A stretch of 51,099 nt of DNA. Source: a phage. The notes beneath the pieces are model-generated. The model did not search any database and was not told the origin of the DNA. It saw nothing but the letters and a program-made list of their open reading frames with translations. A program made the position numbers and the translations under genes. Below, in pieces: positions 11,561 to 17,504 of this stretch. Positions within the stretch are counted from its first letter, which is position 1; each line of letters begins with the position of its first letter. The DNA lies in sequence record NC_129764.1, one strand, 5' to 3'.

Positions 11561-11577
11561 TAAATGAGATATAATCA

Positions 11578-11604
11578 AGGCTGTCAATTGACGGCCTTTT
11601 TTTA
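11578..11604 (+). terminator. hairpin plus T-run between terminase and portal (attenuator-like)
   Basis: ggctgtcaattgacggcc near-palindrome followed by ttttttt. Confidence 0.4.
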
Positions 11605-11617
11605 TTGGAGGGAAAGT

Positions 11618-12901
11618 ATGAAAATTGTTAAGCATGATGGTTATAACGATATCTTTAACGGCGGCGCGGACGGCTCACCTAAACCATTTTTTATGGTTGA
11701 TGCGTCATATAACGTCGGCTCATTCTATAACGATAACGCGACAGCGAAAAGAATTGTAGACGTGATCCCTGAAGAGATGGTTACGGCTGGTTTTAAAATA
11801 TCAGGAGTCAAGGATGAAAAGGAGTTCAAATCTCTGTGGGATAGTTACAAAATTGATCCTAGCTTGGTTGATGTTCTTTGCTGGGAGCGCCTATACGGTG
11901 GAGCGGCTATTGTAGCGATCATTAATGACAACAGAATGTTAACCAGCCCTGTTAAACCTGGAGCTAAACTTGAAGGTGTGCGTGTTTATGATAGATTCGC
12001 AATTACAATCGAAAAAAGAGTAACTAATGCTCGATCGCCTCGCTATGGTGAACCTGAGATCTATAAGGTGTCTCCTGGTGACAATATTCAACCTTACTTA
12101 ATCCACCACACAAGAATTTTTATTGCTGATGGTGAGCGAGTAACACCTCAGATTCGAAAGCAGAATCAAGGGTGGGGTGCTTCAGTTTTGAATAAGTCAC
12201 TGATTGATGCGATCTGCGATTACGACTACTGCGAATCTCTAGCGACTCAGATCCTGAGGCGTAAGCAGCAGGCGGTATGGAAAGTCAAAGGTCTTGCTGA
12301 AATGTGTGATGATGATGATGCTCAGTATGCAGCGCGCTTGAGACTGGCTCAGGTTGACGATAATTCAGGTGTTGGCCGTGCGATCGGTATCGATGCCGAG
12401 ACGGAAGAATACGACGTTTTAAACTCTGATATCAGCGGAGTTCCTGAGTTCCTATCAAGCAAGATGGACCGCATTGTCTCGCTTTCTGGTATCCATGAGA
12501 TTATCATCAAGAATAAGAACGTAGGCGGCGTATCAGCGAGCCAAAACACAGCGCTTGAGACTTTCTATAAGCTAGTCGATCGCAAGCGAGAGGAAGATTA
12601 CAGGCCGCTTCTTGAGTTCTTGTTGCCGTTCATTGTTGACGAAGAAGAGTGGTCCATCGAGTTTGAGCCGCTGTCGGTCCCGAGCAAGAAAGAAGAATCC
12701 GAGATCACGAAGAACAACATTGAGTCGGTAACGAAAGCTATCACCGAGCAAATCATCGATCTGGAAGAAGCTCGCGACACGTTACGATCCATTGCGCCTG
12801 AGTTCAAACTCAAGGATGGTAATAACATCAACATTCGCGAACCGGAAGAAACAACAGAGCCGGAACCGGGATTAGGGGGGAAGTTAGAAGATGAAAATTA
12901 A
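11618..12901 (+). CDS. portal protein (427 aa)
   Basis: ATG with RBS ggagggaaagtATG; large ORF directly after terminase. Confidence 0.75.
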   Translation: MKIVKHDGYNDIFNGGADGSPKPFFMVDASYNVGSFYNDNATAKRIVDVIPEEMVTAGFKISGVKDEKEFKSLWDSYKIDPSLVDVLCWERLYGGAAIVAIINDNRMLTSPVKPGAKLEGVRVYDRFAITIEKRVTNARSPRYGEPEIYKVSPGDNIQPYLIHHTRIFIADGERVTPQIRKQNQGWGASVLNKSLIDAICDYDYCESLATQILRRKQQAVWKVKGLAEMCDDDDAQYAARLRLAQVDDNSGVGRAIGIDAETEEYDVLNSDISGVPEFLSSKMDRIVSLSGIHEIIIKNKNVGGVSASQNTALETFYKLVDRKREEDYRPLLEFLLPFIVDEEEWSIEFEPLSVPSKKEESEITKNNIESVTKAITEQIIDLEEARDTLRSIAPEFKLKDGNNINIREPEETTEPEPGLGGKLEDEN

Positions 12902-13652
12902 TGGCGTTGCAACACAGTGGCGCTATCCTGAAATGAGCGAGCGCGCAATGTCGCGCCCCTTACAGGATGTTGCAGCCAGACTAACAGAAAGAATGCGTGA
13001 CGAATTAAAGCCGATGAAATTTGACGCTACCGACGAAGAGATAGATCAGACAGAAAGGTCATTGCTTGATTACGTCGAATCACTCATCGCTCCGATTATT
13101 GGTTCTCTATCATCCGTTGCGCTCGCGATCTATAAATTCAACTCTAAGCAGTGGCTGCGCATCGCTCGCAATGCTGGAGGTAAGAAGAATCAAGCCGTGA
13201 TGCTACTTGCCCTGATTGGTCCTACCGCTGCCGAAAGCTGGTACTCAGGACAATATAATCTGTGGCGATCGCAGGTGACTACTTCTATCAGGAAATTTGC
13301 CGCCAACATGGTTACTGATTTCACTGATAAACTTCGTGCGGCATCCGGTCAGGGTAAAAGCAAGGATTTTGTTGTTGAACTTGCTAAGGAGCGATTTGGT
13401 ATTTACCGTAGCTGGGCCAAAAATAGAGCGTCGGGAATTGTCGGAACCTGGAACAGTAGACTGATGCGGCAGCGCATAAAAGACGCTGGTGTATCTTACT
13501 ATTTCTGGCGCGGGGTGATGGATTTACGCGAACGTGAAAAACATGTAAGATGGGAAGGTAAGCGCATAGCGGTAGATTCCGATCACGTATTCCCGGGTGA
13601 AGAATACAACTGCCGCTGTTGGGCTGTTCCAGACTTTTCTACAGGAGATTAA
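12891..13652 (+). CDS. minor head / head morphogenesis protein (253 aa)
   Basis: Synteny after portal; overlaps portal stop. Confidence 0.55.
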   Translation: MKINGVATQWRYPEMSERAMSRPLQDVAARLTERMRDELKPMKFDATDEEIDQTERSLLDYVESLIAPIIGSLSSVALAIYKFNSKQWLRIARNAGGKKNQAVMLLALIGPTAAESWYSGQYNLWRSQVTTSIRKFAANMVTDFTDKLRAASGQGKSKDFVVELAKERFGIYRSWAKNRASGIVGTWNSRLMRQRIKDAGVSYYFWRGVMDLREREKHVRWEGKRIAVDSDHVFPGEEYNCRCWAVPDFSTGD

Positions 13653-13654
13653 AA

Positions 13655-14767
13655 ATGAAGGCAAAGCAAAGATTCGATTCAGTAAAAATCAAGGCTCACT
13701 TTGATGATAACGGTTTTTTAGTTGACCGCCCAATCGTGGCGCGAATCGGCGCTCAGGTTTACAAAACGCCGCACGGCGATCGAGTTGAGTTCCGTCCGGC
13801 GTCCGAAGTTTTCAAGCAAGATTCCTTGCAAAGTTTTGCAGGCAAGCCGATCACAGTCGGTCACGTAACTGTGACTCCGCAAAATGCTAAGGACGTTGTT
13901 GTAGGATCGTGCGCTGGCGCTGGTATTGCTTCAGGCGTTGGAGTTGAAGTCCCTTTGAGCATTTACAGCGACTACGCGATCAGCAAGGCTAAAGCAAAAG
14001 AAGCTGGTGAATTATCTGTTGGCTACACGTCAGTAGATATTGATAAGCCGGGATGGGGTTCAAATGAGACTGGAGAATATATCTTCGAAGAGGATATGAA
14101 ACAGGACGAAGCGCCGCCTGAAGGTTGGGTTAAATTCGATGCTGTTCAAACAAACATCAAGGTAAACCACATTGCACTTGTTTTCAAGGGTCGCGCTGGA
14201 ATTGCTAAATTAAACCTTGATGCAGAGCAGGAGTTCCCGTATGATAATAACGTTCAATTAACTAACGAGGACAAGCAAATGAAAAAAATTAAGATCGACT
14301 CAGTTGATGTGGAAGTGACCGAAGATGTTGCGAACCATATCGAAAAATTAACCGCGCAGATTGCCGCCATTCAGGGGAAAGCTGATGGCTTCGAAGCTGA
14401 GCGCGATGCGCTGAAGGTTAAGGTTGACTCCCTGCCGGAACTGGTGAAGGCCGAAGTAGAGAAGCAAAAAGCTGACGCCGCAGCGCGTGCTGAAGTCACC
14501 GCAGTAGCGGAAACCGCAGGCGTTAAGCATGATGGTCTTGATATCAAAGACGTTAAGGTAGCTGTTGTCAAAGCCATGCTTGATAAAGATGTTAGCGAAA
14601 AATCAGACGCATATATCGACGCTATGTTTGATGTTGCTAAGGATTCTGATATTATGGCTATTCAGCGTAAGGCGGTAAAAGGCGATTCTATCGAAGGCGG
14701 TAAGCCGGAAGAGAAAAACGACGCCGCACCTGTTACGCCAAATTCACGTTTAAGCAAAGTAATGTAA
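13655..14767 (+). CDS. putative scaffold or prohead protease-scaffold protein (370 aa)
   Basis: Position before capsid; Ala/Lys/Glu-rich predicted coiled-coil C-terminal half. Confidence 0.5.
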   Translation: MKAKQRFDSVKIKAHFDDNGFLVDRPIVARIGAQVYKTPHGDRVEFRPASEVFKQDSLQSFAGKPITVGHVTVTPQNAKDVVVGSCAGAGIASGVGVEVPLSIYSDYAISKAKAKEAGELSVGYTSVDIDKPGWGSNETGEYIFEEDMKQDEAPPEGWVKFDAVQTNIKVNHIALVFKGRAGIAKLNLDAEQEFPYDNNVQLTNEDKQMKKIKIDSVDVEVTEDVANHIEKLTAQIAAIQGKADGFEAERDALKVKVDSLPELVKAEVEKQKADAAARAEVTAVAETAGVKHDGLDIKDVKVAVVKAMLDKDVSEKSDAYIDAMFDVAKDSDIMAIQRKAVKGDSIEGGKPEEKNDAAPVTPNSRLSKVM

Positions 14768-14778
14768 GGGGAAATATC

Positions 14779-15255
14779 ATGGCACAGATTAATGCATCTT
14801 ATCAGCGAGACATGGCTATTGCGCTTCCGGGTATGGTTGCGGATACTTCGAAGTATAATATTGATGGCGCTTGCGTCGTTAACGAAGGTGATGTTTTTGT
14901 TGGCGCTGCCGTACAGGTTGTTCAAGCCCAAGCCGTTGACGGCCATAAATTGGTTAAGGCTATGGAATCGTCTAAAGTGCCGTATGGCGTAGCTATTCGA
15001 TCTCACTGGCAGACTGTGAACAAAGATAATCAGATGATTTACGAAGATGGCGGTGCTATCAACGTCATGACCTCCGGGCGAGTCTGGATGCTTTCCAAAT
15101 CAGAAGAAGCACCAACTTTCGGGACCGCTGTAAAACTTGACGTTGACGGTCAAGAGAAATCTGATGGTACGATCGAAACAACTTGGACCTACGCTGGCGG
15201 CTGGACCAAATATAAAGACATTCAGCTTGTTGAAGTTCAGTTGCATCAACTGTAA
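14779..15255 (+). CDS. capsid-associated protein, paralogue 1 (158 aa)
   Basis: Paralogous to the next ORF (TSKYNIDGACVV vs TSTYNIDGSCVA; PYGVAIRS vs PYGIAFRS). Confidence 0.5.
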   Translation: MAQINASYQRDMAIALPGMVADTSKYNIDGACVVNEGDVFVGAAVQVVQAQAVDGHKLVKAMESSKVPYGVAIRSHWQTVNKDNQMIYEDGGAINVMTSGRVWMLSKSEEAPTFGTAVKLDVDGQEKSDGTIETTWTYAGGWTKYKDIQLVEVQLHQL

Positions 15256-15270
15256 TTAGTGTTTAATATG

Positions 15271-15300
15271 GGGACTATCCTTTTGGGTAGTCCTTTTTTT
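15271..15300 (+). terminator. intrinsic terminator
   Basis: gggactatcc-tttt-gggtagtcc stem followed by T7. Confidence 0.6.
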
Positions 15301-15314
15301 ATGGAGAAAATACT

Positions 15315-16082
15315 ATGCCTTACGAAAATTTAATGTTACGCCCGGCGTGCCCTGGTAATCTTTCGGATACTTCAACCTACAATATTGATGGATCTTGTGT
15401 TGCCCAAGGCGATATTGAGTTCGGCTCCGCTGTTAAAGTTATCGGTATTGTTGACGGCGTTAAGGTTGTTTCCACGCTTACTGATGGTGAAACACCTTAC
15501 GGAATCGCTTTCCGTTCCCAATATGAACACCTGAGCGGTAAAATCCTCGACGGTGAAGTTTGCAACGTCGTTTCTCATGGTCGCGTGTGGACGCTAACTT
15601 CTCTTGATGAAGCTCCGGCCTTGTTCTCAAAGTTACAATTTGGATCTGGTGGTGTTGTTACTGGTAGCTCTGGTTCCGTAGGTTGGACTTTTGCTGGTGG
15701 ATTTGTTAAGCACGAGGACGGGTACATTATTGAGGTTCAGGTTAAGCAAAATGCCTTTATTGTTCCACCTCCACCCCCTCCCGTGGTTCTTGTTGAGTCT
15801 GCGACGATTACAACTAACAAGGAGAGTCCTCAGCCAAACAATGCACCTGTGCAATTTAACGTTGCTGTAAAACCTGACAATGCCACCGATAAAACTGGCG
15901 TGTGGTCTGTTGATGCTGAAAATATTGCGACAATAGATCCAAAATCTGGCGTTCTTACTCCAATTGGTGGAGATGCGGCAGGTAGCGTAATCGTAAATTG
16001 GACGGCTAACGATGCCAGCAAAACTAAAGAATCGATCACTTATGTTTTTGATGCTGCGCCAACCGAAGAAGAAGAGTCATAA
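15315..16082 (+). CDS. capsid-associated protein, paralogue 2, with poly-Pro linker and Ig-like (Big_2-like) C-terminal domain (255 aa)
   Basis: Paralogue of 14779-15255; PPPPPPVV linker; C-terminal segment resembles bacterial Ig-like domain. Confidence 0.5.
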   Translation: MPYENLMLRPACPGNLSDTSTYNIDGSCVAQGDIEFGSAVKVIGIVDGVKVVSTLTDGETPYGIAFRSQYEHLSGKILDGEVCNVVSHGRVWTLTSLDEAPALFSKLQFGSGGVVTGSSGSVGWTFAGGFVKHEDGYIIEVQVKQNAFIVPPPPPPVVLVESATITTNKESPQPNNAPVQFNVAVKPDNATDKTGVWSVDAENIATIDPKSGVLTPIGGDAAGSVIVNWTANDASKTKESITYVFDAAPTEEEES

Positions 16083-16101
16083 CACAAAAATACTTTGACG
16101 C

Positions 16102-16120
16102 TTTAACAAAAAGTGCTATT
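16102..16120 (-). promoter_or_regulatory. dyad motif copy, reversed (plus strand TTTAACAAAAAGTGCTATT)
   Basis: Sequence match; lies between TTGACG and TATTAT upstream of the capsid gene. Confidence 0.55.
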
Positions 16121-16126
16121 ATTGAA

Positions 16127-16153
16127 GCCGTGAACATAATCACGGCTTTTTTT
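16127..16153 (+). terminator. intrinsic terminator or attenuator in capsid gene leader
   Basis: gccgtgaacataatcacggc stem followed by T7. Confidence 0.6.
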
Positions 16154-16174: not shown

Positions 16175-17134
16175 ATGACTACTAAAAAATTTGATGAAGC
16201 AGATAAGAGCAATGTTGAAATGTATCTGATCCAGGCTGGCGTAAAACAGGATGCAGCCGCAACGATGGGTATCTGGACCGCTCAGGAACTACACCGCATC
16301 AAAAGCCAGTCCTATGAAGAAGACTACCCGGTAGGCTCCGCACTTCGAGTATTCCCGGTTACTACCGATCTATCTCCGACCGACAAGACGTTTGAGTATA
16401 TGACCTTTGATAAGGTTGGTACTGCGCAGATTATCGCTGACTATACAGATGACCTGCCTCTGGTTGATGCGCTTGGTACTTCTGAGTTCGGTAAGGTGTT
16501 CCGCTTGGGTAACGCGTACCTGATTTCAATCGACGAAATCAAAGCAGGTCAGGCAACTGGCCGACCGCTGTCAACCCGCAAGGCAAGCGCGTGTCAGTTA
16601 GCGCATGACCAACTGGTTAACCGTCTGGTGTTCAAAGGTTCCGCGCCGCACAAGATCGTGTCCGTGTTCAACCATCCGAACATCACCAAAATTACCTCCG
16701 GTAAGTGGATGAATGTCTCAACTCCGAAGCCGGAAACGGCTGAAGCGGAATTGACTCAGGCGATTGAAACCATCGAGACGATTACTCGCGGTCAGCATCG
16801 TGCAACCAACATTCTGATCCCGCCGTCCATGCGTAAGGTTCTGGCGATCCGTATGCCTGAAACTACCATGTCTTACCTGGACTATTTCAAGTCTCAGAAT
16901 GCTGGTATCGAAATCGACTCTATCGCAGAGCTTGAAGATATCGACGGTGCGGGTACTAAAGGCGTACTGGTGTACGAAAAAAATCCGATGAATATGTCCA
17001 TCGAGATCCCGGAAGCATTTAACATGCTGCCAGCGCAGCCGAAAGACCTTCACTTTAAAGTGCCTTGCACCTCCAAGTGTACTGGCCTTACAATTTATCG
17101 TCCGATGACTATTGTCTTAATCACTGGCGTGTAA
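16175..17134 (+). CDS. major capsid protein (319 aa)
   Basis: Strong RBS aaggagaagtaatcATG; flanked by terminators; position in head module. Confidence 0.7.
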   Translation: MTTKKFDEADKSNVEMYLIQAGVKQDAAATMGIWTAQELHRIKSQSYEEDYPVGSALRVFPVTTDLSPTDKTFEYMTFDKVGTAQIIADYTDDLPLVDALGTSEFGKVFRLGNAYLISIDEIKAGQATGRPLSTRKASACQLAHDQLVNRLVFKGSAPHKIVSVFNHPNITKITSGKWMNVSTPKPETAEAELTQAIETIETITRGQHRATNILIPPSMRKVLAIRMPETTMSYLDYFKSQNAGIEIDSIAELEDIDGAGTKGVLVYEKNPMNMSIEIPEAFNMLPAQPKDLHFKVPCTSKCTGLTIYRPMTIVLITGV

Positions 17135-17141
17135 TATTATA

Positions 17142-17168
17142 GGGACTAACTTAGTTGGTCCCTTTTTT
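17142..17168 (+). terminator. intrinsic terminator after capsid gene
   Basis: gggactaac-tta-gttggtccc stem followed by T6. Confidence 0.7.
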
Positions 17169-17183
17169 ATTGGAGAAATCAAA

Positions 17184-17474
17184 ATGGCTAAAGAAAAAAC
17201 TGTTGTTATCGTAAACGTTGGTGTAGCGCTTCAGATGTTCCGTCTTGAAGATGGCTCATTCGCAAAGGTTCTCCCGGATGAAGAGGTGACACTCCCAGCA
17301 TCCGCACTTGAATTGCCCGGGCTGCGTTGCTTGATTGCTCGCGAAGAAATCGAAGTAAAAGACGACAGTGCCACCAACCGGGAAATCCGCGCAGAGATGG
17401 CTAAACTTAAAAAACCTGATCCGTGGGATAAGATGAGCGTAAAAGAGCTTGAAGACGGCGGCGAATACTATTAA
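17184..17474 (+). CDS. hypothetical head-associated protein (96 aa)
   Basis: ORF with RBS ggagaaatcaaaATG. Confidence 0.5.
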   Translation: MAKEKTVVIVNVGVALQMFRLEDGSFAKVLPDEEVTLPASALELPGLRCLIAREEIEVKDDSATNREIRAEMAKLKKPDPWDKMSVKELEDGGEYY

Positions 17475-17481
17475 TCAACAA

Positions 17482-17504
17482 GGCGCTTAATGCGCCTTTT
17501 TTTT
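17482..17504 (+). terminator. intrinsic terminator
   Basis: ggcgcttaatgcgcc stem followed by T8. Confidence 0.7.

Follow-up and report, generated by a model that had tools for sequence, protein, structure and literature searches.

A probable pair of capsid cement proteins, one of them bearing an Ig-like domain, in the head module of a T1-like Tunavirus

In 2025, a cryo-EM study of the head of coliphage T1, published in Viruses and represented by the head model PDB 9KZJ, described a T=7 capsid containing 415 copies of gp47, together with two further proteins, gp49 and gp48, that were modelled in the head map as trimeric capsid cement proteins and that have, like lambda gpD and TW1 gp56, a beta-tulip fold (PMC11945409). 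The investigators counted 80 homotrimers of gp49 and 60 heterotrimers, each composed of one gp48 and two gp49 subunits, and indicated in the legend of their Figure 2A that the six trimers around one hexon correspond to four homotrimers and two heterotrimers (PMC11945409). They further noted that the N-terminus of gp49 reaches the inner capsid surface and touches the A-domains of two major capsid proteins (MCPs), whereas gp48 is found on the outside only (PMC11945409). Residues 2-153 of gp48 were built into cryo-EM density, and residues 154-255, which give rise to a weak protruding density, were modelled with AlphaFold3; the same authors suggested, without a test, that this protrusion might aid adsorption (PMC11945409). 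The GenBank record of T1 names the two genes 'capsid decoration protein' and 'IgG-domain-containing decoration protein', and also notes an HHpred match to the TW1 structure 5WK1.

The DNA analysed here (sequence record NC_129764.1, 51,099 nucleotides, referred to as the window in its entirety) belongs to a T1-like coliphage of the genus Tunavirus, family Drexlerviridae, and the region of interest displays 99.9% nucleotide identity to Escherichia phage vB_EcoS_SA12KD and 85% to T1. The gene order is common to the window and T1: a protease gene, a cement gene, a terminator, a gene for an Ig-bearing cement protein, a promoter and terminator, and the MCP gene, with the corresponding features of the window (from the protease to the MCP) all lying on the plus strand. 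The first of these genes (13655..14767) encodes a head maturation protease with a scaffold domain, and matches Pfam DUF2213 (E = 9e-26) and PHROG 530, 'head maturation protease' (E = 1e-109); its start is probably the ATG at 13655 rather than the mechanically listed TTG at 13619, because the T1 orthologue is 1113 nt in length. A published study of CBASS escape in Drexlerviridae located escape mutations in the prohead protease/scaffold, and not in the cement genes. Farther upstream, the listed portal reading frame (11564-12901) also probably begins too early, the T1 gene being 1284 nt long and corresponding to an ATG at 11618, and a terminator-like hairpin (11577-11598) is found inside that spurious 5' extension.

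At the downstream end of the locus, the reading frame at 16175..17134 encodes the orthologue of T1 gp47, the MCP, with matches to Pfam Major_capside (E = 2e-62) and PHROG 264 (E = 5.5e-104), which bears out the placement of the gene pair, in an earlier note on this DNA, upstream of the major capsid gene. Both paralogue genes are thus situated within the head module, with the protease/scaffold gene on their upstream side and the MCP gene on their downstream side. Directly 3' of the MCP gene is a gene for a protein of 96 residues (17184-17474), the orthologue of T1 gp46, which is conserved in the head module and matches only DUF7444 (E = 3e-31) and PHROG 2716 (function unknown). Neither terminal redundancy nor tRNA genes were found within the window.

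The shorter of the two paralogues (14779..15255, 158 amino acids) was identified as a cement, or decoration, protein by its reading frame and by its matches in Pfam, PHROG and the PDB, and as the orthologue of T1 gp49 by an identity of 93%. It matches the Pfam family Phage_cement (PF22758) with E = 4.4e-30 and 105.2 bits (against a cut-off of 27), the family XM1_gp53 (PF23982) with E = 7e-19, PHROG 1989 with E = 3e-66 and, in a phmmer search, the PDB chains of 9kmg, 9kmh and 9kzj that are labelled 'Decoration protein / cement protein II' (E = 4e-96). Across ten Tunavirus genomes the gene displays a dN/dS ratio of approximately 0.08, indicating purifying selection.

The longer paralogue is encoded on the plus strand at 15315-16082, and its 255 residues are organized in three parts: a cement domain, a proline linker and an Ig-like domain. 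When the two proteins were compared by BLASTP, 56 of 144 positions were identical (39%) and 63% were positive (E = 1e-30), a similarity far above chance, and their paralogy, asserted in the earlier note, is real; the four motif pairs quoted there, along with the sequence PPPPPPVV, are all present in the translations, and its reading-frame coordinates are exact. The N-terminal cement domain (residues 1-147, 15315..15755) was delimited from Pfam, from its identity to the shorter paralogue and from PDB matches, and is the orthologue of the N-terminal beta-tulip domain of T1 gp48. Residues 8-143 match Phage_cement with E = 4.1e-16 and 59.8 bits (again against a cut-off of 27), the protein also matches PF23982 (the XM1 gp53 minor capsid protein) far above the curated cut-off, and it belongs, like its shorter neighbour, to PHROG 1989. 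Its phmmer matches to 9kzj_H ('BIG2 domain-containing protein') and to the 9kmh chain 'Decoration protein gp29' both reach an E-value of approximately 1e-135, and it is 80% identical to T1 gp48 over its length. The cement domain of this gene, with a dN/dS ratio of approximately 0.11 across the same ten Tunavirus, is likewise under purifying selection, and the N-terminus is four residues shorter than that of the shorter protein and different in sequence, as is also the case in T1.

No NCBIfam family was matched by either the 158-residue or the 255-residue protein. The suggestion that a decoration or cement protein has been duplicated here, for which a profile search for decoration-protein folds had been proposed as a check, is upheld by the matches of both proteins to PF22758 (E = 4.4e-30 and 4.1e-16) and by their identity (93% and 80%) to two T1 proteins that are modelled in the T1 head. 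Prediction of the 255-residue protein by AlphaFold2 from a single sequence, without an alignment, returned a mean pLDDT of 33.8 and a pTM of 0.20, values too low for the model to be used; the beta-tulip fold is instead assigned from identity to the T1 chains so described, and at 80-93% identity that fold would hardly be a matter of real doubt.

The cement domain is followed by a poly-proline linker, IVPPPPPPVVLVES, read from the translation as residues 148-161 (15756..15797) and containing PPPPPPVV at residues 151-158, and then, at the C-terminus, by an Ig-like domain of the Big_2 group and an acidic tail (together residues ~162-255, 15798..16082 including the stop codon), the domain being assigned from Pfam, PHROG and profile matches. 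The linker is kept in T1-type orthologues, and is absent from the versions found in Tlsvirus, Klebsiella phage K50 and phage Jahat. Residues 163-238 score 27.7 bits against Pfam Big_2 (PF02368), above the gathering cut-off of 22.8, with scores of up to 52.7 bits among homologues, and the C-terminus also matches PHROG 215, 'structural protein with Ig domain' (E = 7.5e-11). A profile constructed from nine homologous Ig domains matches the C-terminal domains of the tail tube proteins of DT57C and T5 (E = 6e-13 and 3e-9), the solved Ig-like structures so matched being 8hqz_p, 7qg9_F and 5ngj_A (E = 6e-13 to 3e-9), and a tblastn search with the Ig domain alone returned the major tail proteins of T5-like phages at approximately 40% identity. 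The Ig-like character of the region beyond the PPPPPPVV linker had been put forward in the earlier note, along with a Big_2 profile search as a check, and is supported by these matches.

Comparison of this domain across ten Tunavirus demonstrated that it exists as two very divergent allele classes, one of which (the window type) is carried by the window, SA12KD, XJA18, ISF001, phi2457T, phiL and Shfl1, and the other of which (the T1 type) is carried by T1, SA32RD and BIFF. Nucleotide identity between the window and T1 falls to 58-72% only across positions 15800-16082, with 83-98% identity on either side; between the two allele classes synonymous divergence is saturated (dS > 2, versus approximately 0.55 elsewhere in the gene), and the dN/dS ratio of the domain is 0.09-0.15. 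The combination of saturated dS, low dN/dS and a local drop in identity therefore points to exchange of the Ig module by recombination among Tunavirus, as judged from these alignments, and not to positive selection. Positive selection on the Ig domain was accordingly considered and rejected on those same between-class values; within classes, the domain displays dN/dS ratios of 0.3-0.5 that rest on very few changes. Two records were discounted: that of ISF001 (vB_SflS-ISF001), which departs from the window at many non-synonymous but hardly any synonymous sites and hence has an apparent dN/dS of 3-5, and that of vB_SsoS_008, in which frameshifts break the short cement gene. In each case the oddity seems to stem from errors of sequencing or assembly, not from biology. 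In the Shigella phage Shfl1 the orthologue of the Ig-bearing paralogue is 266 residues long (817-1617 of its locus), and the segment KPDNATNKTGVW is tandemly duplicated inside its Ig-like domain.

Beyond the genus, a tblastn search returned matches to the cement domain in 816 phage records, in only 179 of which the match extends over 80% or more of the long protein, and fusions of a cement domain to an Ig domain were found in Tunavirus, in some Tempevirinae and in K50. The position occupied by the second paralogue is variable in its contents. In Warwickvirus mar001J1 it holds a protein of 337 residues with two Big_2 domains (1301-2314 of its locus), the cement domain of which is 88-90% identical to that of T1 gp48, whereas the second paralogue of Jahat_MG145 (1280-2062), a phage of the same genus, is only ~33% identical; because this divergence falls within one genus, the second paralogue appears to move horizontally, and to do so independently of the first. 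Webervirus Skenny lacks a second gene in the slot altogether, and in Rogunavirus vB_EcoS_AKS96 the slot (2078-2962) encodes a protein of 294 residues with collagen-like Gly-X-Y repeats (Pfam Collagen, PF01391, E = 1.4e-9), which may, from its sequence, represent a different kind of capsid fibre.

The Ig domain of the window protein, carried on its poly-proline spacer, would be expected to project flexibly from the shell. Adherence to surfaces or to mucin has been associated with the Ig-like capsid decorations of other phages, T4 Hoc and T5 pb10. By analogy with what has been proposed for those two proteins, the role of the domain is most likely weak, multivalent binding to glycans on host or environmental surfaces. 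A different reading, in which both proteins are cement subunits and the Ig domain is purely structural (an aid to folding or solubility, a steric shield or a stabilizer of the vertex) with no part in adhesion, is considered less likely, although several observations are in keeping with it: comparison of the allele classes indicates that the domain evolves under purifying, not diversifying, selection (dN/dS 0.09-0.15), some Drexlerviridae either lack it (Webervirus, for example) or carry the collagen-repeat protein in its place, and adhesion was only speculated upon in the T1 paper (PMC11945409). No experimental support for an adhesive role was found for any T1-like phage. Set against that structural reading are the disposition of the domain, mounted on a proline spacer and, in T1, disordered with respect to the shell, which fits a ligand binder that reaches outward better than a brace; its closest relatives, which are outward-facing Ig domains on T5-like tail tubes; its exchange between lineages independently of the cement domain, which is typical of modules that face the environment; and the precedent of the T4 and T5 decorations.

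Taken together, the two genes very probably encode the capsid cement proteins of a T1-like siphophage, orthologous to T1 gp49 and gp48 and arranged as they are in T1, with incorporation into the virion and stoichiometry in this phage transferred from T1 on the strength of homology. Both orthologues in mar001J1 are annotated in that record as 'confirmed structural protein by MS'. On the T1 model, the beta-tulip domains of both proteins would trimerize at the threefold and quasi-threefold positions of a T=7, HK97-fold capsid, where each trimer, bound to the MCP, would clamp three capsomers together. The 158-residue protein, the main subunit of every trimer, would form 80 homotrimers, and 60 additional trimers (2:1 heterotrimers) would each combine two of its subunits with one of the 255-residue paralogue; from these trimer counts, each virion would therefore contain approximately 360 copies of the short protein and approximately 60 of the long one.

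The same numbers bear on where the heterotrimers might be located. A hexon of a T=7 lattice borders on one icosahedral-threefold site, three sites at which three hexons meet and two sites adjacent to a penton, and since the T1 figure legend places two heterotrimers around a hexon, and only the penton-adjacent class occurs twice per hexon, we infer that the heterotrimers ring the pentons, with five Ig domains at each vertex. This is a geometric deduction from the legend, and not a statement of the T1 paper. A trimer of one long and two short subunits suits a site that has one penton and two hexons as its neighbours.

An arrangement in which the two paralogues instead form separate homotrimers, at different capsid sites, is very improbable: their cement domains are only 39% identical to each other, which would be compatible with such a separation, but their T1 orthologues, at 93% and 80% identity, do form heterotrimers, the asymmetric unit of 9KZJ has one long chain against the six short chains implied by the trimer numbers (a ratio that fits one plus two), and the paralogues differ from each other at the N-terminus in the window just as they do in T1. 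Least credible of all is the proposal that only the short protein decorates the capsid, the long one being a toxin-like product or an assembly factor, such as a scaffold, that stays out of the virion, a view that reflects the labels 'putative scaffolding protein' and 'putative zonula occludens toxin' in several Drexlerviridae records and that is contradicted by the building of T1 gp48 (80% identical) into the map of the mature virion, by the annotation of the mar001J1 orthologue as detected in virions by MS, by the provision of a scaffold function in the C-terminal domain of the upstream protease, and by the absence of any Pfam toxin family among the matches of the long protein.

The 59-nt gap between the two paralogues contains a terminator-like hairpin (GGGGACTATCC-TTTT-GGGTAGTCC) followed by a run of T residues (15270..15302), identified by a pattern scan as a stem of 11 pairs (15270-15295) and seven T, and by RNA folding as a structure with a minimum free energy of -18.8 kcal/mol (z = -3.2), as stable as which none of 200 shuffled sequences folded. 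The terminator that had been read at this point from the letters alone is therefore well founded, and a rho-independent terminator is annotated between the two genes in the records of T1 and SA12KD. The hairpin is kept in ten Tunavirus genomes with small changes in its stem; in mar001J1 one pair is changed on both sides (T-A to C-G), and at the same position Klebsiella phage K50 and Citrobacter phage ElisaCorrea have a hairpin and T run with an unrelated stem. The hairpin keeps its place in Warwickvirus, Tlsvirus and K50 although the stem differs in sequence, and its conservation in spite of stem change supports a function. On sequence grounds, that function could plausibly be to lower transcription of the long paralogue toward the 6:1 ratio of the virion; a general role of such hairpins in transcript processing or stability, or in the architecture of the operon, is equally possible, because similar hairpins follow the next three genes as well.

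Four consecutive gaps of the head cluster each contain a strong hairpin and T run on the coding strand (15270-15295, 16124-16149, 17141-17163 and 17480-17498), which follow, respectively, the short cement gene, the Ig-bearing paralogue, the MCP gene and the DUF7444 gene. A late structural operon in which each gene is followed by a terminator is suggestive of antitermination, of graded read-through or of a stabilizing effect of the hairpins on mRNA 3' ends. Between the Ig-bearing paralogue and the MCP gene (16095..16149), scanning and folding identified a promoter-like site (TTGACG-16-TATTAT, with TG) and then a second terminator-like hairpin of -20.6 kcal/mol (z = -3.8), and a promoter and terminator are annotated likewise in the T1 and SA12KD records. 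This site, the best sigma-70-like site of the region, ends two bases upstream of the hairpin. A transcript that starts from it would probably begin inside the stem and so escape termination, with transcripts arriving from upstream being stopped.

These strands can be joined in a single proposal, which is offered tentatively and is rather less than an even prospect as a whole: the long subunit would be specialized for the vertex, facing the penton in the five trimers around it; its dosage, approximately one sixth, would be set by partial read-through of the conserved terminator between the genes; and its slot would act as an exchangeable display cassette. Vertex specialization, dosage by read-through and a display cassette are none of them stated in the T1 structure paper. 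If the proposal is true, the cassette slot would allow lineages of Drexlerviridae to retune what their capsid vertices stick to.

The practical value of these assignments is principally one of annotation, in that most related records, including the one that is 99.9% identical, describe both products as 'hypothetical protein', and a few mislabel these genes as encoding a scaffolding protein or a zonula occludens toxin. In addition, the Ig domain, exposed on its proline spacer at some 60 copies per virion, lends itself naturally to phage display, or to the engineering of adherence in therapeutic T1-like phages of Shigella and E. coli.

Among described systems, the closest is the gp49/gp48 pair of T1 (GenBank AY216660, CPTT1_029 and CPTT1_030), which shares with the window the protein lengths of 158 and 255 residues, the gene order, the intergenic terminator, the PPPPPP linker and the C-terminal Big_2 domain, at protein identities of 93% and 80%. 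Differences lie in the Ig domain, for which the window carries another allele (approximately 60% protein identity to that of T1), and in a few surface-loop substitutions in the short protein (residues 62-66 and 82-83). Another T1-type head structure, 9KMG/9KMH ('cement protein II' and 'Decoration protein gp29'), contains a 158-residue chain of the same sequence as that of 9KZJ and a 255-residue gp29 chain that matches the long window protein with E = 6e-135; a literature search for the corresponding paper returned only unrelated ones.

More distantly, lambda gpD, TW1 gp56 (5WK1), P74-26 gp87 and Sf11 gp40 resemble the T1 pair in forming trimeric clamps at the threefold or quasi-threefold sites of HK97-fold capsids, but each of those phages relies on one gene and on homotrimers only, whereas in T1-type phages a second, Ig-bearing paralogue gives rise to heterotrimers. 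The siphophage Sf11, a member of another phage group, has a single homotrimeric beta-tulip decoration protein and lacks an Ig-bearing paralogue (PMC12724387), and the N-terminus of gp49 inserts toward the inner capsid surface, while that of gpD does not (PMC11945409). No direct sequence match between the window proteins and gpD was found. Both window proteins are well above the gathering cut-offs of Phage_cement (PF22758, E217 gp24 and Pam3 gp6) and of PF23982 (XM1 gp53), and the 158-residue protein displays a weak direct match to the PDB chain 8hdt_G, 'Cement' (E = 1.7e-4); the founders of those two families, which derive from myophages or a cyanophage, are, however, not fused to an Ig domain. 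T4 Hoc, T5 pb10 and the tail-tube Ig domain of T5 pb6 share with the window protein an outward-facing Ig-like domain on a structural protein of the virion, but Hoc and pb10 bind the centres of hexamers through unrelated capsid-binding domains, whereas here the Ig domain is carried as a fusion by a beta-tulip cement subunit that would occupy the trimer sites.

The system of the window is therefore that of T1 gp49 and gp48 in a close relative, and the proteins, their paralogy, fold and place in the capsid, as well as a speculative role in adhesion, were already published for T1 in 2025, as was the contrast between an Ig-bearing paralogue that forms heterotrimers and the classical beta-tulip decorators. 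What the present comparison adds to the T1 paper is the conservation of the intergenic terminator, the existence of two alleles of the Ig domain, and the variability of the slot that the second paralogue occupies.
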